The position numbers and the translations under genes were made by a program. Shown piece after piece: positions 2,166-58,884 of a DNA stretch of 64,000 nucleotides (within the stretch, counting starts at the first letter, position 1; each line of letters begins with the position of its first letter). Origin of the DNA: Candidatus Saccharimonadota bacterium (lineage in GTDB: Bacteria; Patescibacteriota; Saccharimonadia; Saccharimonadales; DTSZ01); assembly GCA_012965045.1 (NCBI GenBank), contig DTSZ01000001.1, positions 591,629 through 655,628 of the forward strand, in the 5' to 3' direction. The notes under the pieces are model-generated. The model ran no database searches. It was not told the origin of the DNA and saw nothing but the letters and a program-made list of their open reading frames with translations.

Positions 2166-2285
2166 AACGTTTTCGTTTTTAAGTGTTAAACATTAGTATT
2201 TTAGCATTATCAATGTTTTGTAGCAAAATGATAAAAATTCATAATTGAGCCGGGGGTGAGAGCCTGCCTGCCGCAGGTAGGGACT

Positions 2286-2474
2286 TGGTCGGGGTGAGAG
2301 GACTTGGTCACGTTCCGCGACCCCGAAACTTCACGTTTAAAAACTAGTTTTTAACGGAAGGTTTCCTTGCGAAATGACATTTAGTCATTTCTCACCTCCG
2401 ACTCACTCCGTGAGTTAGGAGTCACAAGTCTTCTCAAGCATTAAAAAAACTGCCCAAATGGACAGTTTTTTTAA
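2286..2474 (-). ncRNA. Unit A: tRNA-3'-end-associated structured element. It ends (minus sense) in a 21-nt copy of the tRNA-Pro T-arm/acceptor/CCA.
   Basis: 2286..2306 (tggtcggggtgagaggacttg) is identical to 2475..2495 of the tRNA-Pro gene. The body is paralogous to unit B, with compensatory hairpin changes. A terminator (2443..2472) separates it from the tRNA. Confidence 0.4.
2443..2472 (-). terminator. Intrinsic terminator downstream of tRNA-Pro
   Basis: Hairpin actgccca-aa-tggacagt flanked by an A-run and a T-run, so it can act in both directions. Confidence 0.6.
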
Positions 2475-2551
2475 TGGTCGGGGTGAGAGGACTTGAACCT
2501 CCGACCTCACGGTCCCAAACCGCGCGCGCTAGCCAACTGCGCCACACCCCG
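2475..2551 (-). tRNA. tRNA-Pro (anticodon TGG), CCA encoded
   Basis: Manually folded cloverleaf. Acceptor CGGGGTG/CACCCCG with C1-G72, D-stem GCGC, anticodon stem CGCGG/CCGTG, loop TTTGGGA, T-arm GGAGG-TTCAAGT-CCTCT. Length 77 nt. Confidence 0.9.
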
Positions 2552-2608
2552 ATAAACAGAGGTTATTTTACATTTTAAACGATCATATTACAAGAAAAGC
2601 GTTAAAGA

Positions 2609-3430
2609 CTAGTTTTTTGATCTTTCAATGAGACTTGTTAAACCGCCCATTACAGCTTGCTGCTCTAAGTCTTCGTCTGGTTTTTCGTAGTAGCTTTCTG
2701 CTACTGCCAAACATTGATCAAGTAGGTTTATGAGTTTGTTAAACATATTCTCATCAATGGACTCAATTGGGTAGCGCCTATCAGAACTCAATGCTTCCTG
2801 TGTTTGATCTCCTACAAATTGAAGGCCAATTCCCTCTTCCCAGATTGGAAATAAGCTATATTTACCCGATTTAAGATCCCCTTTGAATATATCTTTAGCC
2901 GTCGGTATTTCAACGAAATCTACATCAAATTCTTCCTCAAGATCCACCGTGCCCTCATTAATAGTGTATCGCTCTAAGCATGCTGTCCAGCCGTCAAATC
3001 TAGAGATTTTTTGTGAACCCTTTTCTTTAGTTTGCTGAAAAAGAGTTATGAAAATCTCCTCATCTGAGTCCGACCAAATAACAACGTCTAGATGAAATTC
3101 TTCATGTCGTAAGGTGTCTGGGTTTGGCACAGGGCTATTAAACTTTTCTATAATGTGCACTACACGAGCGCTTTCAAAATCGAGAGAATCAGAGGCCCAT
3201 AGGGCGGCCTCGCTCGCCACACCAACATCATCGCTTAAAAGGTGAGCAAAATCGTCAAAAAGTGCGCCAATTCGGGCCTTTCTCGCCATCGGCTGAGTGT
3301 CCTCTTCAAATTGCTCCTTGGCATAGCCCTCAGCTAATAGTGCGTTTACCCAGTCGTCTGCAGTACTTTCACTCATTAGGTAGAGTAAATCATCATTTTG
3401 TTCAAATTCTGACCAAGACCGAGGCTGCAT
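2609..3430 (-). CDS. Hypothetical acidic protein
   Basis: Uninterrupted 273-aa ORF with a coding-like composition. No motif I recognise. Confidence 0.55.
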   Translation of the reverse strand: MQPRSWSEFEQNDDLLYLMSESTADDWVNALLAEGYAKEQFEEDTQPMARKARIGALFDDFAHLLSDDVGVASEAALWASDSLDFESARVVHIIEKFNSPVPNPDTLRHEEFHLDVVIWSDSDEEIFITLFQQTKEKGSQKISRFDGWTACLERYTINEGTVDLEEEFDVDFVEIPTAKDIFKGDLKSGKYSLFPIWEEGIGLQFVGDQTQEALSSDRRYPIESIDENMFNKLINLLDQCLAVAESYYEKPDEDLEQQAVMGGLTSLIERSKN

Positions 3431-5012: not shown

Positions 5013-5533
5013 TCTAAACTGTTGTAACGTGCTTTACCGCGTGAGGGTTTAAGCAAATACTATCCGGGCCGATTGCTCCCACAACACCTAAATGTTGTTT
5101 TCTCTCAAGGAATAAATCCTTGCAATAATTGTACGCTGATTGTGTTTGAAGGGCAAAGACGATGTTTTTACCTGAATTCAGCAAGCTGCCGTTTGCATTC
5201 ATTTCCACCATTTTGAGTGATCAAAACGGTGGAGCCAAAAGATCACCCTGTTCACATCTCTTGATATACTCACTGCTTGTTTAACAACAGCCTGTGGAAT
5301 GGCTAAAGCCAGTCTGAAAGTTATCTATAAGAGTCTCAGACACGTCCTCGGCTTAATTGTTGTTAAGCCAAGCATTCCTATTCAGGATCTGCTCAAAAGG
5401 GATTGGCGAGCGAAGCTCGCTGGGTCTGGGCATAAAAGACAGCTTTTCCTGATTAGATGTTGTAATTCAAATTGTGTGAACCTTAACCTGCCTACCGGCA
5501 GGCAGGCGAGTGAAGTGTGCTTCCCAAGAAAAC

Positions 5534-21856: not shown

Positions 21857-21883
21857 GCCCAAAGTATAACAAATATACACTTT

Positions 21884-21909
21884 TTAACGATCGTAAAAAT
21901 TTGTATACT
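21884..21909. promoter_or_regulatory. Near-palindromic operator-like site TTAACGATCGTAAAAATTTGTATACT in the ruvA / regulator divergent promoter
   Basis: Dyad core ACGATCGT. A second copy (22476..22501) sits inside a 36-bp palindrome downstream of the regulator gene. Confidence 0.45.
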
Positions 21910-21915
21910 CTAATC

Positions 21916-22464
21916 ATGTCAACGCGAGCAGCAGACCAAGCCAGTGCTCAAATCCTAAAAACATGCCTTCAGCTATTAAAAGATGCTGGTGGCTTAAGCC
22001 GAGACACGTTAAAAAACACCCTCACAAAACTCGATTTTGACCTATCTAACCGTCTCGTTAATTTACGCGTAAATTCTGTAATTTTGCGGGCTCGATCATC
22101 GCAGTTTATCGAAGAAGAAAATGGTCAATTAACGGTAACCTCTGCCGGTGTACTGCAGCTACAAAAACTAATACGGATCACTGACTTTAAGTTTCTTAAA
22201 AGCCAGCCATGGGACAATAAATGGAGGCTACTAAGTTACGATGTTCCAGAAACCGAACGTCAACTTCGCAATGAACTACGTGCCCTTATTAAGCAAGCGG
22301 ACTTTACTTTATTGCAGCGAAGTCTATGGATTACGCCGTACGCCTGCGAAAAACTCTTAGAAGATTTACTAGACAACTACCCAGATTACGTACAGCTATT
22401 TATCGTCAGCTCCATTAAGGGCGACATGAATTTTAGCGCAAATTTCAAAAACTACATCGACTAA
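21916..22464 (+). CDS. PaaX-family-like transcriptional regulator (putative)
   Basis: N-terminal HTH-like region. C-terminal WDNKWRLLSYDVPETERQLRNELRALIKQADFTLLQRSLWITP resembles the PaaX C-terminal domain signature (W.G.W.LV....PE...R..LR..L...GF..L..SVW..P). Start taken at MSTRAAD. Confidence 0.45.
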   Translation: MSTRAADQASAQILKTCLQLLKDAGGLSRDTLKNTLTKLDFDLSNRLVNLRVNSVILRARSSQFIEEENGQLTVTSAGVLQLQKLIRITDFKFLKSQPWDNKWRLLSYDVPETERQLRNELRALIKQADFTLLQRSLWITPYACEKLLEDLLDNYPDYVQLFIVSSIKGDMNFSANFKNYID

Positions 22465-22465
22465 C

Positions 22466-22501
22466 TATACAAAAATTAACGATCGTAAAATTTTGTATAG
22501 T
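22466..22501. promoter_or_regulatory. 36-bp near-perfect palindrome CTATACAAAAATTAACGATCGTAAAATTTTGTATAG (second copy of the ACGATCGT dyad)
   Basis: The arms are reverse complements with 2 mismatches. It lies between the convergent ends of the PaaX-like gene and ruvC. Confidence 0.45.
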
Positions 22502-22543
22502 CCGAGCGCTGCACCGGTATTGATAATTCAGCGACTGGTTAAT

Positions 22544-27427: not shown

Positions 27428-27606
27428 GGGGTGTGGTGGGACTCGCCAAAAGTATTTTTCTGGTGAAAAATCTTTTCGATCGTACTCTAGCGCCGGCGCA
27501 CTCCGGTCTTGCGAGAAGCAGACATGCATTTCTCACCCAACTGGGTTCGAGTCATTAAAACTGTCCAATTTAAAACCCGCCAAAAGGCGGGCGTTAAATT
27601 GGAGGG
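27428..27606 (-). repeat. Unit C: orphan copy of the tRNA-associated element, with no adjacent tRNA
   Basis: Shares with unit B the segment ccaatttaaaa-cccgcc-a(aaa/ttc)ggcgg-...-aattggaggg (terminator plus junction) and a tRNA-T-arm-like end ggcgagtcccac (27436..27447). Confidence 0.35.
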
Positions 27607-27644
27607 ACGTATGTATCGTTATTGCAACTAAAATAAATCTGCAA

Positions 27645-28151
27645 CTACTCAACGTTAAAAGTTAGAATGTTCGATTCGAAACCTTGCCATTGGAGTTTTG
27701 CTTGATGTTCGCCCGGTGGCAATTTTAATTCGTCACTAAATCCGATGTAATCACTGCTTATATCGTGAGAAAAGTCATCTACCAGCGTAAAAGGGTATTC
27801 ATACGTGATGGTTTTGTTTGAGCCGATATTTATATCTGTAAGCGCATCACCACAGGCATAGTACAGACCAATTGGTTGTTCATTTATATAAAACGTACCC
27901 TCGGTACATGTGGAAGAAAACGTATATGTTTTTGCACTTGTTGTTGGGTTGTTAATGAATGACTTGAAGGTAATTGATTCACCTATTGAATAGATGCTTT
28001 TGTGTAATCCTAGTTGTATATTCAACTCCCCATTCGTAGGTTCAGATACATTCTCATGTTTGACAAGCTTAGTCATTACTAAAAATAAACCAACTCCAGC
28101 TACTATTGCAATCAATAAAGCAATGATAGTAATTTTAACTTTTTTACTCAT
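27645..28151 (-). CDS. Hypothetical membrane-anchored/secreted beta-rich protein
   Basis: 168-aa ORF with an N-terminal TM/signal anchor (ITIIALLIAIVAGVGLFLVM) and a Ser/Thr/Tyr-rich beta-sandwich-like remainder. Bracketed by units C and B. Confidence 0.55.
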   Translation of the reverse strand: MSKKVKITIIALLIAIVAGVGLFLVMTKLVKHENVSEPTNGELNIQLGLHKSIYSIGESITFKSFINNPTTSAKTYTFSSTCTEGTFYINEQPIGLYYACGDALTDINIGSNKTITYEYPFTLVDDFSHDISSDYIGFSDELKLPPGEHQAKLQWQGFESNILTFNVE

Positions 28152-28255
28152 GACTTAACTATAACAAAAATGCTACAACATTAGTTGCGGCATTCTCATT
28201 TGAGTTATGATTTTGACCATATAAAAACACCTACGGCGAGATAGGTGTTTTTATA

Positions 28256-28441
28256 TGGAGGGTCCAGTGGGACTCGCCCACATTCTGCGGGCCCGAAACT
28301 ACGTCTTTCAAAACAAGTTTTGAAGAGTAAGTTTCCTTGCAAACTGCTCCCAGCAGTTTTCACCCCCGACACTACGTGTCGTGGCTTCGACCCAGTAAAA
28401 CTCTCCAATTTAAAAACCCGCCATTCGGCGGATTCATAAAT
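28256..28441 (-). ncRNA. Unit B: tRNA-3'-end-associated structured element. It ends (minus sense) in a 21-nt copy of the tRNA-Lys T-arm/acceptor/CCA and has terminators on both sides.
   Basis: 28256..28276 (tggagggtccagtgggactcg) is identical to 28442..28462 of the tRNA-Lys gene. An intrinsic terminator (28411..28432) lies between the tRNA and the unit. A second hairpin plus T-run (28222..28250) lies after the unit. The internal hairpins covary with unit A. Confidence 0.45.
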
Positions 28442-28518
28442 TGGAGGGTCCAGTGGGACTCGAACCCACGACACCCTGCTTAAAAGGCAGGTGCTCTAAC
28501 CAGCTGAGCTATGGACCC
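28442..28518 (-). tRNA. tRNA-Lys (anticodon TTT), CCA encoded
   Basis: Manual cloverleaf. Acceptor GGGTCCA/TGGACCC, D-stem GCTC/GAGC, anticodon stem CCTGC/GCAGG, loop CTTTTAA, T-arm GTGGG-TTCGAGT-CCCAC. Length 77 nt. Confidence 0.9.
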
Positions 28519-30633: not shown

Positions 30634-32508
30634 ATGCGCTTACCAAAAAATGTAATATCACCACTTGGGTTGTCTCGTTACCAAGAACATGCCGCTCTGG
30701 TATATTCGTCAAAGCGCCGAGGCCACGGAAAATTAGGTCTAGCTCTCAGTGAAGACGGTCTTCATTTTAACGAGTCCGTTGATGCTCCGGTAATATTCAC
30801 CGGTCAAAACAAAACGGAATCAATTGCTGACACCAGCGACTACCGTTTTGCAAAAGTGGCTCACGACCACCTGCTTACCTACACCAAAAATGGCCGCTTA
30901 GTCATTGCACGAGAAGAAGAATCCGGCGACCTCTGGGACTTAGCAATCTGGAAAACACTACGAACAGGTAACCCACGTGCTACTAACGGCATGTTTGTGC
31001 CAGAGTATAAATACAACAATCAATACGTCTTGTTCTACAACACCAGCAGCATTAACTTTGCAGTCACAAAAGACTTTAAAGACTGGCACTCGCCATACCG
31101 CCCAGTTTTAGAGCCACGCCGACATAACTTTGATAACAAGTCTCTAAAAATAGTTTCAGTTGCAAACATTAGTAGTGGAATTGCTGTGTTGTACGAGTCG
31201 CAGTCAATGCGTAAGCGACAGCAAACTATTCATGTTGGGTTTGCTGTATTTTCGCGCCAAAACCCTGGTAAGTTAATCTGGCGCAGCGAAGGGCCGTTAT
31301 GGGCTGCCACAAACGCCGGTAGGTCAAAAATTGAACTCCTTGGTGCAGACATACAAAACGATTCTATTCGTTTATACGGTAGCTCTGTCTCCAACGGTCT
31401 ATTTACCGTCGACCTCCAACAACCGCTTAAGCTAGACGAAGTTAGCCGACCAAAATTCGAACTAGAGCGTCATCATAAAAACCCGTTGCTTAGCCCAGAA
31501 GGTGGCGAACACTGGGAGTCGTCAGGGGTATTTAACCCAAGCGTCGTCCACCACGAAGGCAAGGTGCATATTTTGTACCGTGCTGTTGACCCGTACGGCG
31601 TTAGTCATGTCGGTTATGCCAGCACAACCGACGGGTCAGAAATAGACTATCGGCACAACGAACCTTGCTACTGGCCACGCGCATGGTTTGAAGCTGGTAG
31701 AGGCAAACGGCCATATAAAGAATGGAATAAAGCCTTTGGTTCCGGCGGCGGCTGGGGCGGTTGCGAAGACCCTAAGGCAACACTTATGGATGACAAAGTC
31801 TACATGACCTATGTTGCCCACGACGGCAGCCCCTATTTGCGTTTATGTATAACATCAATTGATATAGATGATTTTGTAAATCATCGGTGGGATAAATGGG
31901 CATGGCCAAAAGTAATTAGTAACCCTCAATTTGGCCCACACGTTAATCCACCATTTGGAGTTCGTGTTATAAAAAGTGGAATAATCTTGCCAGAGAAAAT
32001 TAACGATAAATATGTGATTTTCTTCAAAGAACCGCCACATGTTGGCATTCATTATATTGACGATATCGAACGACTTGGTATTGATGAAGAGCTCGAAGCT
32101 CATGACTTCATATACACTCGCCCCGGTCATTGGGACAGTCAAAAACTCTCGATGGGATCGACTCCGATTTTAGTAAATGAAGGTTGGCTGGTTATATACC
32201 ACGCCGTCGATAAACGCGAAGGTCACAAATATAAAATTGGCGCTATGTTACTTGATAAGAACGATCCAAGTAAGGTATTGCGGCGCACCAATACCCCAAT
32301 TCTTGAACCTGATGCTGACTATGAAAACAACTGGAAACCTGGCGTTGCCTACCCATCTGGTGCGGCTATCATCGGTGATCAACTTCATGTGTATTACGGC
32401 GGTGGAGACCGACACGTCTGCGTTGCAACAACTCCCCTGCAAGAGTTCATGGACCATCTAATGAACGAAGAAGAAATTCACCTAACTGCAGAAGTCACGG
32501 TTAGTTAG
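30634..32508 (+). CDS. Tandem two-domain GH130-like (DUF377, beta-mannoside phosphorylase family) protein; the N-terminal copy is degenerate
   Basis: The C-terminal half has the GH130 hallmarks NPSVVHHEGKVHILYRAVD, GCEDPKATLMDDKVYMTYVAHDG and HVYYGGGDRHVCVATT. The N-terminal half is a diverged copy that lacks CEDPR. Confidence 0.7.
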   Translation: MRLPKNVISPLGLSRYQEHAALVYSSKRRGHGKLGLALSEDGLHFNESVDAPVIFTGQNKTESIADTSDYRFAKVAHDHLLTYTKNGRLVIAREEESGDLWDLAIWKTLRTGNPRATNGMFVPEYKYNNQYVLFYNTSSINFAVTKDFKDWHSPYRPVLEPRRHNFDNKSLKIVSVANISSGIAVLYESQSMRKRQQTIHVGFAVFSRQNPGKLIWRSEGPLWAATNAGRSKIELLGADIQNDSIRLYGSSVSNGLFTVDLQQPLKLDEVSRPKFELERHHKNPLLSPEGGEHWESSGVFNPSVVHHEGKVHILYRAVDPYGVSHVGYASTTDGSEIDYRHNEPCYWPRAWFEAGRGKRPYKEWNKAFGSGGGWGGCEDPKATLMDDKVYMTYVAHDGSPYLRLCITSIDIDDFVNHRWDKWAWPKVISNPQFGPHVNPPFGVRVIKSGIILPEKINDKYVIFFKEPPHVGIHYIDDIERLGIDEELEAHDFIYTRPGHWDSQKLSMGSTPILVNEGWLVIYHAVDKREGHKYKIGAMLLDKNDPSKVLRRTNTPILEPDADYENNWKPGVAYPSGAAIIGDQLHVYYGGGDRHVCVATTPLQEFMDHLMNEEEIHLTAEVTVS

Positions 32509-33764: not shown

Positions 33765-35687
33765 GTGTTTATGTTTACAGTAACCAGAAATAAAAAGAAT
33801 CCAATCATAAAAAGTAATAACGACGAGCCGTGGCGTGCGTTGGCAGCGTTTAACTGTTCGCCGGCTAAAGTAGGCGACTCGCTTCATTTAGTATTTCGGG
33901 CAATGACCGACGAAGCCCTGTACAAGGGTCACAACGTCGAGCTATCGACCATAGGACATGTAATGGTTGACCCTCAGACACACCATTCCATCGGAGAATA
34001 CAAAGTCCTTATACAGCCCGAAGAAGACTGGGAGATGTATGGCTGCGAAGACCCGCGGGTAACTAAAATTGATGACACATACTATATTTTCTACACCGCT
34101 CTGAGTGGTTTTCCATATTCGGCTGAAAATATTAAATGTGCCGTGGCGACCACCAAAGACTTTAAGACAATCGACAGCCGGCAACTGGTAACACCGTTTA
34201 ATGCTAAGGCCATGGCGCTTTTTCCAGAAAAAGTCGACGGTAAATGGACTGTTATTTTGACTGCAGATAGCGACAAGCCACCTTCTAAAATGGCTATAGC
34301 TCAAAGTGACAATTTTGATGATTTTTTAAATCATGACTGGTGGGCAAATTGGTATGAAGAAGTTGAACACCATAATATTGACCTGCGCCGCGTGGATACT
34401 GACCACTGCGAAGTTGGCGCACCTCCAATAAAAACTGATGCGGGCTGGCTCCTTATCTACAGCCACATCCAAGATTACTTTACCGACGACAAGGTTTTTG
34501 GAATCGAAGCTGTTTTATTAGACAAAGACAACCCACGAAAAATTATCGGCCGTACTCGCTACCCATTTATGGTGCCAGAAGAAAGCTACGAACAATATGG
34601 ACAACTGCCAGACATCGTTTTTCCAAGCGGAGCTATGTTGGATGGCGACATCCTAACAGTTTTTTATGGAGCTGCCGACACAACTTGCGCCTCTGCTAAA
34701 TTGCGGCTGTCACACCTGCTTGAATCTATGCAGATGGAAGGAAAAAGTTACGCGAAACGCTACAGTGGCAATCCGATTCTACTCGCTAAAGAAGAAAATT
34801 ACTGGGAAAGCAGCTATGTCCTAAATCCTTCAGCAATAGAAATTGACGGCGAAATAAATATTCTTTACCGAGCGCTTGGGCCTGACAACACATCTGTTTG
34901 CGGCCTAGCAATTACAAAAGATGGCTACACAATTGACGAGCGTCTTGATGAGCCAATCTACATACCGCGGGCTAAATTTGAGTCAAAGCTTAAACCACCA
35001 GACGGCATATCTGGCTGCGAAGACTTGCGGGCCCAAATTATCGGTGATCGAATTTTTGTAACCTACACAGGCTACAATGGCGTTGACCCTCCGGCTGTCG
35101 CAGCAAGTTCGATTTCTATTGAAGAATTTAAAAACCGCAAGTTTCAATCTTGGACCGAGCCTCACCTAATTAGTCCGGTTGGCATCGACGACAAAGATGC
35201 TGCAATTTTTAGTGAAAAAATAAACGATCAGTACCTTGTATTTCATAGAATTGACCACCATATATGCGCCGACACCCTACCAGAACTAGATTTTGAAAAG
35301 CATCAGCTTGACCGCTGTATCCAGGTTATGGGACCGCGTAAAGGCATGTGGGACAGTCTAAAAATTGGAATCAATGGTCCGCCGATAAAAACCGAAAAGG
35401 GTTGGTTGCAGTTCTACCACGGCATTAACGAGCATCACCACTACCTTATGGGGGCCGCGTTGCTAGATCTTAAAGATCCAACAAAAATCATTGGGCGATC
35501 TGCTATGCCAATAATGGAACCTGAAACCCAGTGGGAACTTGAAGGTTGGATAGACAATGTTATTTTTAGTTGCGGTCAAGTTGTTCGCGACGACACAATT
35601 TTTATTTATTATGGTGGCGCTGACACAGTTGTGGCTGTGGCAACATTAAGCTTGTCGGAGCTTTTGAGCCAACTCAACGAGGCTTAG
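33765..35687 (+). CDS. Tandem two-domain GH130-like (DUF377) glycoside phosphorylase-family protein; both copies intact
   Basis: N-terminal half: YGCEDPRVTKIDDTYYIFYTALSG ... TVFYGAADTTCA. C-terminal half: NPSAIEIDGEINILYRALG ... GCEDLRAQIIGDRIFVTYTGYNG ... FIYYGGADTVVAVA. Paralog of 30634..32508. Confidence 0.75.
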   Translation: MFMFTVTRNKKNPIIKSNNDEPWRALAAFNCSPAKVGDSLHLVFRAMTDEALYKGHNVELSTIGHVMVDPQTHHSIGEYKVLIQPEEDWEMYGCEDPRVTKIDDTYYIFYTALSGFPYSAENIKCAVATTKDFKTIDSRQLVTPFNAKAMALFPEKVDGKWTVILTADSDKPPSKMAIAQSDNFDDFLNHDWWANWYEEVEHHNIDLRRVDTDHCEVGAPPIKTDAGWLLIYSHIQDYFTDDKVFGIEAVLLDKDNPRKIIGRTRYPFMVPEESYEQYGQLPDIVFPSGAMLDGDILTVFYGAADTTCASAKLRLSHLLESMQMEGKSYAKRYSGNPILLAKEENYWESSYVLNPSAIEIDGEINILYRALGPDNTSVCGLAITKDGYTIDERLDEPIYIPRAKFESKLKPPDGISGCEDLRAQIIGDRIFVTYTGYNGVDPPAVAASSISIEEFKNRKFQSWTEPHLISPVGIDDKDAAIFSEKINDQYLVFHRIDHHICADTLPELDFEKHQLDRCIQVMGPRKGMWDSLKIGINGPPIKTEKGWLQFYHGINEHHHYLMGAALLDLKDPTKIIGRSAMPIMEPETQWELEGWIDNVIFSCGQVVRDDTIFIYYGGADTVVAVATLSLSELLSQLNEA

Positions 35688-47295: not shown

Positions 47296-49116
47296 TTAGT
47301 CCTTTTTAAGTAACACTGTGAAAGCTTCGGGCGGTATTTCTACTTTACCGAATTTTTTCATTCGTTGTTTACCAGCTTTTTGCTTGGCCCATAATTTCTT
47401 TTTACGAGACACGTCGCCGCCGTATAAATGACCGGTAACATTTTTGCCCAAGGCTTTAATATCTTCACGAGCGAGTATTTTACTGCCAACCGCTGCTTGC
47501 AAAGCAACTTCAAATAGCTGACGCGGAATAACGTCTTTGAGTTTTTCCAACATTTTACGGCCGGTACTTTCTGCTTCTGATTTATGAGTCATAATACTTA
47601 AACTGTCCATGCGCTCACCACCTACTAAAATATCTAAACGTACTAAATCCTGGGCTCTATAATCAGCAATTTCATAGCTTAGTGTGCCGTAGCCGCTGGT
47701 AGTGCTTTTTAGTTGGTCATAAAAATCTGTTAGCACATTTGCCAGTGGTGCCTCAAAGCTTACTGTGGCTAAATGCTCGTCGACATAGCTAATATTTTTC
47801 TGGTGGCCCCGAGTTGAAACAATTAACTGCACAACATTCCCAACATAATCTACGGGTACAATAATTTCACCGCGAATCCACGGCTCACGAATTTCTGCGA
47901 TATGCGTCGGATCAGGCAGGTTGCTGGCCGAACGAATGGTTTGCTCTTCGCCACTGGCCATTACAACGTGGTAGTCGGTCGACGGATTAGTCACAATCAC
48001 CTCAACCCCTTGGTGGCGCTCAATTCGTTCTTGCACAATTTCAAGATGCAACAGACCTAAAAACCCAACCCTAAACCCAAAGCCAAGAATTTGTGAATTT
48101 TCTGGTTCATACACTAAAGCTGCATCATTTAAACTAACTTTTTCTAGTGCGTCTTTGAGGTTTGGGTAGTCGTCGGCGCTAGCTGGAAACACTCCAGCAT
48201 ACACAAATGGTATAGCTTGTTTATAGCCAGGCAAAGCCTCTGCAGTGGTTCCGTGTAATACAACTGTGTCGCCAACGCGAGCGTCGGCAACTGTTTTAAA
48301 GTTGGTAACAATATAGCCAATTTCGCCCGCCTTGAGGCTTGGTGTTGGCACTTGTTTCGGACTAAAAAAGCCAGTAATTAACGCCCGTCCGTCAGCTTTT
48401 GTGCCCAGCATGGTTATGTCGGCGTTCTTTTTAATCTCGCCAGCCACGACTTTTACATACAGCACTACACCTTGATATTCATCCAAAAACGAATCAAAAA
48501 CCAATGCTTTGGCGGTTTCGTCTTTTAGTGGTTGTGGCGGCGGAACGCGCTCAACAACAGCCTTTAAAACGGCCTCAACATTTTGGCCAGTCTTTGCGCT
48601 AATTTCTATAATTTCTTCCCGCTTGCATCCCAGTAAACTAATAACTTCTTTACTAACGCGGTCAACATCGGCCGCAGGCAAGTCTACTTTGTTTAGTACC
48701 GGAATAATCTCTAGATCTTGTTCAAGCGCTAAATACACATTCGCCAGTGTCTGAGCCTGTATACCTTGACTCGCGTCTACGACAAGGATTGCACCTTCCA
48801 CAGCTGCCAAGCTACGACTAACTTCGTAACTAAAGTCGACATGGCCGGGAGTGTCAATCAAGTTGAGTTGATACTCAATTTGATTGACGCCATCTTCCAT
48901 CTTCTTTCTTCCATCTTCCGAATGACGGTACGTCATTCTAACCGGCTGCAATTTTATGGTAATACCTTTTTCCCGCTCCAGATCCATCTGGTCAAGTAGC
49001 TGTTCTTTCATTTCACGCTTGGTAACCGTCCCAGTAATTTCCATAAGCCGATCCGCCAAGGTCGACTTACCGTGGTCAATGTGGGCAATAATGCAGAAAT
49101 TTCTAATATTTTCCAT
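47296..49116 (-). CDS. lepA: Translation elongation factor 4 (LepA)
   Basis: MENIRNFCIIAHIDHGKSTL G-domain start and the LepA-specific C-terminal domain. Internal Met preferred over the track start at 49140. Confidence 0.95.
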   Translation of the reverse strand: MENIRNFCIIAHIDHGKSTLADRLMEITGTVTKREMKEQLLDQMDLEREKGITIKLQPVRMTYRHSEDGRKKMEDGVNQIEYQLNLIDTPGHVDFSYEVSRSLAAVEGAILVVDASQGIQAQTLANVYLALEQDLEIIPVLNKVDLPAADVDRVSKEVISLLGCKREEIIEISAKTGQNVEAVLKAVVERVPPPQPLKDETAKALVFDSFLDEYQGVVLYVKVVAGEIKKNADITMLGTKADGRALITGFFSPKQVPTPSLKAGEIGYIVTNFKTVADARVGDTVVLHGTTAEALPGYKQAIPFVYAGVFPASADDYPNLKDALEKVSLNDAALVYEPENSQILGFGFRVGFLGLLHLEIVQERIERHQGVEVIVTNPSTDYHVVMASGEEQTIRSASNLPDPTHIAEIREPWIRGEIIVPVDYVGNVVQLIVSTRGHQKNISYVDEHLATVSFEAPLANVLTDFYDQLKSTTSGYGTLSYEIADYRAQDLVRLDILVGGERMDSLSIMTHKSEAESTGRKMLEKLKDVIPRQLFEVALQAAVGSKILAREDIKALGKNVTGHLYGGDVSRKKKLWAKQKAGKQRMKKFGKVEIPPEAFTVLLKKD

Positions 49117-58772: not shown

Positions 58773-58807
58773 ACTAGGCTTTAATTATATATTAAACGGT
58801 TCGAAAT

Positions 58808-58884
58808 TGGTAGCGGCAGGTGGAATTGAACCACCGACCTCAGGCTTATGAGTCCTGCGCTCTAACCATCTGAGCTATGCCGCC
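58808..58884 (-). tRNA. tRNA with CAT anticodon (elongator Met or Ile2/lysidine; not initiator-like)
   Basis: Manual fold. Acceptor GGCGGCA/TGCCGCT (G1-U72 wobble), D-stem GCTC/GAGC, anticodon loop CTCATAA, T-arm GGTGG-TTCAATT-CCACC, CCA encoded. Confidence 0.8.

Follow-up and report, generated by a model that had tools for sequence, protein, structure and literature searches.

The locus examined here raises the question of what kind of sequence follows the tRNA-Pro(TGG) gene in a 64,000-nt stretch of a Candidatus Saccharimonadota genome (GenBank assembly GCA_012965045.1, contig DTSZ01000001.1, positions 591,629 to 655,628 of the forward strand; this whole stretch is hereafter the window), where the gene is trailed by a non-coding unit of about 190 nt (unit A) that ends in an exact copy of the tRNA's own last 21 nt. 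An earlier note on this DNA had offered two answers: an undescribed family of small structured RNAs carrying a tRNA-like 3' minihelix, or a family of non-autonomous elements resembling MITEs (transposable elements of miniature size that bear inverted repeats) and mobilised by an integrase aimed at tRNA 3' ends. We judge it somewhat better than evenly probable that unit A represents one copy of an insertion element that is small, non-autonomous and recognised as a single strand and that targets hairpin loops of tRNA sequences. The earlier interpretation was right in part, in recognising a covarying family and in regarding it as mobile and non-autonomous, which it probably is.

ARAGORN and Rfam agreed on the minus-strand tRNA-Pro(TGG) gene, as first described, and the terminator reported behind it is indeed strong; it is also bidirectional, with a palindrome reaching into CCA/TG (coordinates of all features are given in Table 1). 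Aligning each unit to its own tRNA in both orientations revealed two tRNA-derived segments ahead of the core, namely an antisense copy (hereafter the splint) and a sense stub, which are separated in unit A by a 3-nt turn. The splint is imperfect and spans the T-arm, the variable loop and the 3' strand of the anticodon stem. Beyond the core lies the 21-nt copy itself, the tail, which comprises the T-loop, the 3' strands of the T-stem and acceptor stem, and CCA. This 21-mer, CAAGTCCTCTCACCCCGACCA, has exactly two perfect matches in the window (2495..2475, within tRNA-Pro, and the tail at 2306..2286), and allowing up to three mismatches yielded no further match in the window and none in 100 shuffles. 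Taken together, the splint, sense stub and tail place the core of unit A in the T-loop of a partial tRNA copy (~41-76) that is folded back on the antisense strand. Moreover, the antisense copy starts directly after the terminator T-tract, with TGG opposite CCA, so that the 3' half of the tRNA, the terminator and the splint form one long imperfect palindrome with the terminator loop at its centre. If unit A is an insertion element, as we slightly favour, the 21-nt "duplicate" would be the right flank of an interrupted pseudo-copy. The earlier note had allowed that the 21-nt identity might belong to a longer duplicated tRNA pseudogene; the 21 nt do belong to a partial pseudo-copy, but the core interrupts it, which makes the case more unusual, not less. 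The further degenerate copy noted downstream, GCTCTCACCCCCGGC, is present as well and is probably the leftover of an earlier event at tRNA-Pro, judging from its sequence.

The core measures ~88-92 nt across the family (87 nt in unit A) and folds into three hairpins (P3, P4 and P5) joined by junction sequences. That the body of unit A is paralogous to the unit behind tRNA-Lys(TTT) (unit B), with compensatory changes in the hairpins, was already apparent from the letters; the two bodies align, and unit B ends in its own 21-nt tRNA-Lys tail. The covariation holds in the additional copies that entered the covariance model (R1), which was built from 122 distinct cores. In this 122-sequence alignment the three helices are paired in 96.8% of cells, versus 79.9% in column shuffles and 20-51% in slid controls; both partners have changed in 21 of the 32 pairs, and the score for covariation reaches 0.441 versus 0.134. 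The fourth pair of P5 (alignment columns 95-104) is G·U in 106 of the 122 members, unit A among them, and G-C in 11. As this conserved G·U would be a C·A mismatch on the other strand, the structured molecule is the tRNA-sense strand, either as RNA or as single-stranded DNA. The ends of the core (GARAA..., ...P5) are not inverted repeats of each other, and the sole inverted repeat is supplied by the tRNA-derived flanks.

One structural claim did not survive. The proposed acceptor-like mimic before the tail corresponds to hairpin P5 plus the AGTTTCGGG junction, and across 36 young units its pairing with the acceptor strand of the tail (5.28 of 7) was no better than that with shuffled acceptors (5.16 of 7). 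Nor did the 5 nt immediately preceding the tail mimic the T-stem in these units, with mostly 2-3 of 5 nt paired, and we therefore do not regard an acceptor/T-arm minihelix as a feature of the family. ARAGORN detected neither a tmRNA nor an additional tRNA in the window. At the gathering thresholds of Rfam 15, three tRNAs and nothing else in the window passed, and an E-value scan of positions 2200..2600 brought only the tRNA near its threshold; the core matched neither introns nor IS605-associated RNA families. The cores of hammerhead and hairpin ribozymes were also compared with the junction sequences and showed no match, in agreement with Rfam.

A search pattern of three blocks common to units A and B (GTGARAA…GCAAGGAAAC…AGTTTCGGG) was scanned against a species-representative genome collection, and in its strict form it matched at least 120 places in 92 distinct assemblies; R1 gave 154 matches in the 120 listed loci (cited below by L numbers). 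The inference of an undescribed, multi-copy structured family is thus upheld by copy number, covariation and the absence of an Rfam match. Among the matches listed, nearly all assemblies are labelled Saccharibacteria, Saccharimonadales or Patescibacteria, and the named RNase Y relatives of the window are labelled Saccharibacteria/Saccharimonadales by their sources. The labels "Candidatus Binatia" and "Candidatus Parcubacteria" occur at L117 (DATKKU010000032.1) and L006/L028 (JAHWKM01), where they probably reflect binning or labelling errors instead of a broader host range. On these labels, the family appears almost confined to Saccharibacteria so far. Loci identical to that of the window were found on an ENA scaffold and on a JGI contig (L001), the latter with an identical copy of the unit A core. 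An assembly artefact is unlikely, as units also occur on OZ246406 (titled a chromosome-level assembly) and on several contigs longer than 300 kb.

The tie to tRNA genes was assessed with 124 pattern copies among the matches listed. A position directly downstream of a tRNA gene, as in the earlier description, applies to 66 of them (at 57-140 nt), but 24 are mirror-image copies upstream of a tRNA; two lie between two tRNAs, and the remaining 32 have no tRNA in range (6 of these at a locus edge), although most copies without a nearby tRNA keep tRNA-like flanks and a splint. No adjacent tRNA lies on the opposite strand (0/124), meaning that copies and tRNAs are always co-oriented, and the host tRNAs comprise 16 amino-acid identities among the matches listed. 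In 32 of 68 sampled copies downstream of a tRNA, the tail reproduces the final 21 nt of that tRNA exactly, and where a downstream copy has a matching tail, this nearly always starts 15 nt past AGTTTCGGG. The antisense segment was seen in more than 60 units at ~70-80% identity, with a degenerate acceptor part. A proximal terminator is present in all 40 downstream-type units (40/40) and a distal one in ~24 of 40.

The positions of the cores within these flanks indicate what is being targeted. The core sits in a hairpin loop of tRNA-derived sequence, right after G-T, most commonly between T54 and T55/C56 of the T-loop. Rarer points, read in the mirror-image copies, include the D-loop (CGG-T^TAGG or ^AAGG; L039, L076, L098, L093, L056), the anticodon loop (L102, L018) and the D-stem or position 26 (L013, L072, L105, L096, L078). 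The flanks of the core are consecutive tRNA sequence minus 1-2 nt, and comparison with natural sequences suggests that the element starts with T after G and that 1-2 target nt are lost. In each form the interrupted sequence is a partial pseudo-copy beside an intact tRNA of the same identity. The downstream form, as in the window, consists of the intact tRNA, a terminator and then the pseudo-copy (~41-76), whereas in the 24 mirror-image copies the core lies inside a 5' pseudo-copy of the downstream tRNA and is followed by a short right flank, a second promoter and the intact tRNA. The junction in the upstream form is often T54, and the right flank follows natural tRNA sequence for 8-25 nt. After this flank, many of the upstream copies read carry an antisense copy of the uninterrupted site (e.g., GGATGAGAACCT in L102, CCTTACCGCT in L093, and TCGATTCC-AATCGAACC for T-loops), and the spacer before the intact tRNA holds a TATAAT-like box in most upstream cases read. 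The splint adjoins the shorter flank and is able to pair across the insertion point.

The clearest non-tRNA target is found at L084, where the core (matched at 5048 on the plus strand, alignment span 5040-5143) occupies a 15-nt loop closed by a hairpin stem of 10 bp, CGACTACCAG-AGGGGGT^GGGCACCG-CTGGTAGTCG. This target occurs as a tandem duplication (X, core, 13 nt, X, Y), the second hairpin copy is intact, and there is no antisense piece. Flanks without a tRNA-like look were also seen at L012, L032, L038, L114 and L116. The integrase aimed at tRNA 3' ends that the earlier note had in mind would not predict the insertions in D-loops, in anticodon loops, at position 26 and in a non-tRNA hairpin.

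In comparisons between genomes, the units behave like elements that come and go. Groups of cores within ~12% divergence (average linkage) span Pro, His, Leu, Met, Ser, Val, Gln and Thr tRNAs; the cores do not group by tRNA identity, and the flanking segments all match the local tRNA. Some loci have accumulated several copies, such as L056 (two cores in one pseudo-tRNA-Gln and one more downstream), L034 (tRNA-Glu), L039 and L099 (a tRNA with cores on both sides), and the tandem arrays of L039 (186-nt unit) and L070 (five copies). The neighbourhood of RNase Y and tRNA-Pro(TGG) is common to the window, L025 and L095 (RNase Y 64-72% identical), and both of the latter have the upstream form there, with cores nearest to that of unit A. 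Further loci of this neighbourhood were located through RNase Y homologues. Three of them (L124, L125 and L132) are empty sites of the kind the earlier note had named as a check, in which tRNA-Pro is followed only by a terminator; L128 and L129 carry other core types, and L131 carries the core family of unit A. The possibility that unit A is the edge of a decayed prophage, also raised earlier, was not borne out. In the one mirror-image case with an orthologue (L025/L095), the pseudo-copy keeps the promoter-proximal CCTCTGTTT that it has in common with the intact tRNA-Pro of the window, which suggests that the intact tRNA at L025/L095 is an imported copy.

The terminators add to this picture. 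When related pairs are compared, the proximal terminator is usually seen to move together with the unit (L010/L094, 0.89; L027/L110, 0.89; L004/L011, 0.81). L009 and L011 have a distal terminator in common and unrelated outer flanks; the idea drawn from this pair, that the distal terminator is the original chromosomal one, is undercut by those flanks and by the travelling proximal terminators. At the empty sites L124 (5507-5545) and L125 (6675-6712), the terminators have the same CCA..hairpin..TGG form as the one in the window. Native tRNA terminators there are thus extended palindromes that include the CCA end and TGG past the T-tract even without the element, and a terminated pre-tRNA would accordingly have a fully paired 3' end. 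A search of a metagenome collection for an allele joining the tRNA T-arm directly to the distal flank of unit A returned nothing, and was uninformative since the unit A core used as a positive control also returned nothing; this organism is evidently absent from that collection.

Other inserts occupy the same arrangement. In the cases read, tRNAs that lack this core and have a downstream antisense segment carry other inserts, and the order tRNA, terminator, antisense copy, loop, sense stub, insert, tail and terminator recurs. Besides a GCAAG-CCGG core subfamily (unit C of the window, L014, L024 and L109), the arrangement hosts two or more additional families of inserts, whose relationship to the unit A core is distant or absent. 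One of these families has the conserved turn loop GTGAGCGNAGCGAAC; loci with other inserts are L072, L112, L096, L018 and L078 (core2), L049 and L045 (core3), and L106, L057 and L014. At L119, a 9-nt remnant, GTGAAGCGA, stands alone in the T-loop of the pseudo-copy. An antisense tail is not a general property of tRNAs here, given that insert-free tRNAs lack the antisense piece; most of the seeming exceptions with scores reaching the cut-off were read, and these proved to carry cores of other families. What recurs is therefore the architecture, not this core alone.

No enzyme could be linked to the element. All-versus-all clustering of 931 open reading frames (ORFs) from 120 loci yielded no family that tracks it, and Pfam searches of the top ORF clusters plus the 125 nearest singleton ORFs returned housekeeping functions only, with no recurrent integrase, transposase or reverse transcriptase. 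Of the 64 window ORFs, 28 were scanned; they encode none of these three enzymes and include RecA, RuvB, type IV pilus and ComEC competence proteins, DnaK/DnaJ, FtsH, TilS and MurJ. In the loci, no integrase was found next to ~150 copies, and neither a Y1 transposase (TnpA) nor TnpB was detected across the 860 kb that these loci comprise or among the scanned window ORFs. The description of the unit as MITE-like and non-autonomous stands as regards its small size, non-coding nature and patchy occurrence, but an integrase acting in trans is unsupported. The strict pattern had no match in viral contigs, and a single looser-pattern match there lies in a coding region and was without model support. 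Full-text literature searches retrieved no description of this element family, and a survey of MITEs does not mention the phylum (PMC11602168).

Table 1. Positions of the units and neighbouring features in the window
Feature	Coordinates	Strand	Basis or remark
Unit A, host gene tRNA-Pro(TGG), intact, CCA encoded	2551..2475	minus	ARAGORN; Rfam tRNA 63.1 bits
Unit A, proximal terminator: A-tract, hairpin, T-tract	2474..2441	minus	sequence and fold
Unit A, antisense copy (splint) of tRNA-Pro ~69 to 41	2436..2410	minus	23/29, local alignment to tRNA reverse complement
Unit A, sense stub, tRNA positions ~41-54 (GTGAG-TCGGAGGT), last nt T54	2406..2394	minus	left flank of core
Unit A, core, 87 nt	2393..2307	minus	R1: 106.3 bits, E=7e-30
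Order within unit A core: GAGAA, P3, GCAAGG junction, long P4, GGG, P5	P3 2393..2371; P4 2365..2325; P5 2321..2307	minus	
Unit A, tail, exact 21-nt copy of tRNA-Pro C56 to A76	2306..2286	minus	right flank of core; T55 missing
Degenerate older copy of tRNA-Pro 3' end	2263..2249	minus	read in sequence
273-aa ORF between RNase Y and tRNA-Pro	2609..3430	minus	no Pfam domain
Unit B with host gene	28518..28256	minus	R1: 106.4 bits
Unit B, host gene tRNA-Lys(TTT)	28518..28442	minus	
Unit B without host gene	28441..28256	minus	body paralogous to unit A
Unit B, proximal terminator	28441..28408	minus	
Unit B, antisense copy	28407..28376	minus	
Unit B, sense stub	28372..28362	minus	
Unit B, core	28361..28277	minus	
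Unit B, tail	28276..28256	minus	21 nt identical to tRNA-Lys T-loop-to-CCA
Second terminator, directly after unit B tail	28255..28220	minus	
168-aa ORF between units B and C	28151..27645	minus	no Pfam match
Unit C, orphan, divergent	27606..27428	minus	repeat family D11; R1: 15.7 bits
Unit C, tRNA-Lys end remnant and terminator	27606..27565	minus	
Unit C, antisense copy	27567..27541	minus	
Unit C, core, divergent, GCAAG-CCGG subfamily	27538..27446	minus	
Unit C, degenerate tail	27445..27428	minus	
tRNA-Met	58884..58808		no unit

Within the window, R1 gives strong matches to units A and B, at 106 bits apiece, and a weak one to unit C; a further match at 48866..48950 is spurious, as it lies inside a gene that reads by eye as a translation GTPase (LepA-like). 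The tRNA-Lys locus (27428..28518, minus strand) contains the tRNA, unit B, a second terminator, the 168-aa ORF, an 8-nt remnant of the tRNA-Lys end before a third terminator, and unit C, and it looks like a layered accretion of successive events. In the syntenic locus L094, the unit adjoins ComEC directly, without the 168-aa ORF, unit C or the Na+/H+ exchanger.

Several side observations concern the neighbourhood. The 273-aa ORF beside tRNA-Pro is an orphan, with no homologue but itself among 5.8 billion proteins, and the small ORFs found at its position differ in related genomes. At 58780..58810 (minus strand), the CCA of tRNA-Met leads directly into ATTTCGAACCG, which resembles an antisense T-loop, with a TATATAAT box following ahead of the next ORF; from its sequence, this region may resemble the "antisense T-loop plus promoter" module of upstream-type units, possibly by chance. 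A 40-nt, partly palindromic pair (…TATAC…AACGATCGTAAAA…GTATA…; 21871-21910 and 22463-22502) is 83% identical, is spaced 592 nt apart with a small ORF between, and may represent operator-like sites. Lastly, two paralogous GH130 (mannooligosaccharide phosphorylase-like) genes (30634..32508 and 33765..35687) lie beside an MGH1-like glycoside hydrolase, and the 47-nt repeat D7 reflects this paralogy.

In the mechanism we propose for the insertion element, the core would be recognised and moved as a single-stranded nucleic acid (single-stranded DNA or RNA) by a factor encoded elsewhere. A hit on a single-copy tRNA would be lethal, such that only arrangements keeping or restoring an intact tRNA would survive, and the block of tRNA plus unit would then spread and rearrange by homologous recombination through tRNA repeats. 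It is conceivable, though doubtful, that the core with its antisense and sense segments constitutes a programmable, structure-guided insertion system belonging to a new class. A scaffold of ~90 nt would in that case be directed, as RNA or single-stranded DNA, into the hairpin loops of tRNA genes, with the splint serving as a targeting or joining guide and the enzyme being encoded by host or element; the element would rebuild the tRNA using its own tRNA half plus promoter or terminator. There is a substantial, if minority, chance of the same size that this small, non-autonomous, tRNA-targeted element works by a categorically new mechanism. Various findings weigh against the insertion-element explanation. 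Neither the origin of the partial tRNA duplication nor that of the splint is accounted for by the model. Splint complementarity never exceeds ~85%, even beside perfect tails, and the splint was hence not simply copied at the time of insertion. The junction blocks were fixed by the search pattern, and their "invariance" is partly by design. The empty-site genomes have RNase Y only 74-84% identical, and neither an excised form nor a filled/empty pair in near-identical strains was seen. No trans-acting enzyme was found. In addition, the tRNA-Lys(TTT)–ComEC locus is occupied by units in four genomes whose ComEC is only ~40% identical, a retention that would also fit a long-retained functional RNA.

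Such an RNA is the first of the alternatives to be weighed. The units could be a host-beneficial family of structured small RNA genes, co-transcribed with or read through from tRNA genes and multiplied by duplication instead of transposition, with the core as a protein- or ligand-binding domain and the antisense and sense segments as a switch or processing platform. The strong covariation, conserved G·U and fixed strand suit this idea, as do the retention at tRNA-Lys–ComEC across deep divergence and the resemblance of the tRNA 3' half, antisense copy and interrupted sense copy to the alternative pairings of an attenuator; since orientation is always that of the tRNA, upstream-form units would also be transcribed from tRNA promoters. 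We nevertheless consider it unlikely. Presence is patchy (tRNA-Met of the window and three orthologous tRNA-Pro loci are without a unit), the set of unit-bearing tRNAs varies among genomes, there are several insertion positions (twice in one pseudo-tRNA), many decayed tails and orphans, and unrelated core families in the same architecture, and the stretch from the terminator to the antisense copy shows no promoter of its own. The mobile alternative closest to the earlier note is a MITE-like miniature integrative element, or one resembling cis-mobilizable elements (CIMEs), in which a trans-acting tyrosine integrase recombines an attP-like core/T-loop junction with the T-arm and the gene is made whole again by the tRNA 3' end and terminator that the element brings. 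The direct repeat from T-loop to CCA is the classical T-loop sublocation, where the attB of Ms6 is reported to lie (PMC1762012), and kilobase-size integrating elements leave tRNA gene fragments that represent attR sites (PMC9897764). The travelling proximal terminator and the seemingly accreted events at tRNA-Lys (units B and C) fit also. This explanation is nonetheless very unlikely in our estimation: besides the missing integrase and the lack of phage or viral copies, insertions in D-loops, in anticodon loops, at position 26 and in a non-tRNA hairpin come with 5'-side duplications, one-strand covariation and the G·U would be unexpected for double-stranded arm sites, and 190 bp without cargo is below the typical attP length.

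A single-stranded route is offered by the IS200/IS605 group of insertion sequences (IS), whose miniatures (palindrome-associated transposable elements, PATEs) would travel as single-stranded DNA, handled by a Y1 HUH transposase whose gene lies elsewhere. The lack of terminal inverted repeats and of a target duplication around the core, the hairpins at both ends (P3 and P5) with a conserved G·T/G·U irregularity, and the strictly strand-specific insertion just 3' of G-T with an arbitrary right flank all agree, formally, with such miniatures. By analogy, the transcript (core plus 3' flank) might even act as a TnpB omega-RNA with the 21-nt tail as its guide, a scaffold followed by a flank of ~20 nt being the geometry of TnpB right-end guide RNAs. 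The search results for Y1 transposase, TnpB and the IS605-associated Rfam families tell against it, however, as do the loss of 1-2 target nt (IS200/IS605 insertion is seamless) and hairpin positions and spacing unlike those of IS608 and ISDra2; it also accounts for neither the antisense copy nor the tRNA duplication, and we rate it as quite unlikely. Reverse transcription is harder still to credit. Here a chimeric transcript (tRNA part, core and tRNA 3' end) would be copied and recombined into a tRNA gene, and the splint would derive from snap-back extension of a terminated pre-tRNA whose 3' U-tract had paired to the A-tract. R2 elements use co-transcribed target sequence, and the Mauriceville retroplasmid produces tRNA-linked cDNAs that integrate at tRNA genes. 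An antisense copy that begins exactly past the T-tract with TGG facing CCA (one long palindrome), targets that are loops exposed in the folded tRNA, and a sense pseudo-copy beginning near position 41, where 3' tRNA halves start, would all follow from it. Set against this, no reverse transcriptase lies near any copy, the CCA is genome-encoded and hence no sign of an RNA origin, the antisense arm is without a core and never near-perfect, and group II introns are reportedly lacking in Patescibacteria (PMC13011429), leaving this alternative highly improbable. A diversity-generating retroelement was rejected because, by inspection, mismatches between splint and tRNA are not adenine-specific. Each of these rivals departs from the element in at least one feature required for membership.

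If the insertion-element explanation is correct, the family illustrates how essential RNA genes present in a single copy can be colonised in genomes of ~1 Mb with the host spared, and its mode of recognition (single-strand hairpins into hairpin loops) would be unlike that of any described transposon or integrative element; the enzyme, once found, could provide a new site-specific insertion chemistry. If it is a functional RNA instead, a new and widespread class of RNA would be found in physical linkage with tRNA genes, in a lineage of epibionts that matters to human oral and environmental microbiology. In practical terms, the family makes tRNA pseudo-copies and tandem arrays that can confound both the annotation of tRNAs and the binning of genomes in Saccharibacteria and that supply repeats for rearrangements, and R1 can be used to annotate it.

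Among known systems, the attP(+) site of CTX phage and the attC sites of integrons rely on a folded single strand, which presents a duplex copy of the chromosomal target and in which irregularities define the strand. The element may resemble them in this, though nothing in it is known to use Xer or IntI. Group I introns are normally several times longer than the ~90-nt core, which had no group I match in Rfam. Those of Patescibacteria share with the element the phylum and insertion into tRNA loops, but they are self-splicing, occupy position 35/36 and reside in functional tRNAs (PMC13011429), whereas the core lies in partial copies beside an intact gene. PATEs and TnpB guide RNAs formally have in common with the element the absence of inverted repeats and target duplication, subterminal hairpins with an irregular pair, strand-specific insertion 3' of a motif, and a scaffold followed by a flank; they differ in their HUH transposase or TnpB, in the Rfam IS605 families and in seamless insertion, and the tRNA pseudo-copy and splint are without counterpart in PATEs. 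MITEs are likewise small, non-coding, multi-copy, patchy in related genomes and presumably moved in trans, but the core is without terminal inverted repeats of its own, there is no fixed-length target-site duplication (1-2 target nt are lost), we know of no related autonomous IS, and the target, loops of tRNA sequences, is extremely specific. There is also a likeness in arrangement to tRNA-integrating phages, integrative and conjugative elements, genomic islands and CIMEs, in which the tRNA is also left intact, a 3' direct repeat from the T-loop marks the far end, and elements pile up at one tRNA. Compared with these, the unit is only ~190 nt long and has neither cargo nor integrase, it also hits other loops and one non-tRNA hairpin with no fixed crossover sublocation, its mirror forms duplicate the 5' part and promoter, an antisense target copy accompanies its insertions, and its conserved part is a covarying single-strand structure.

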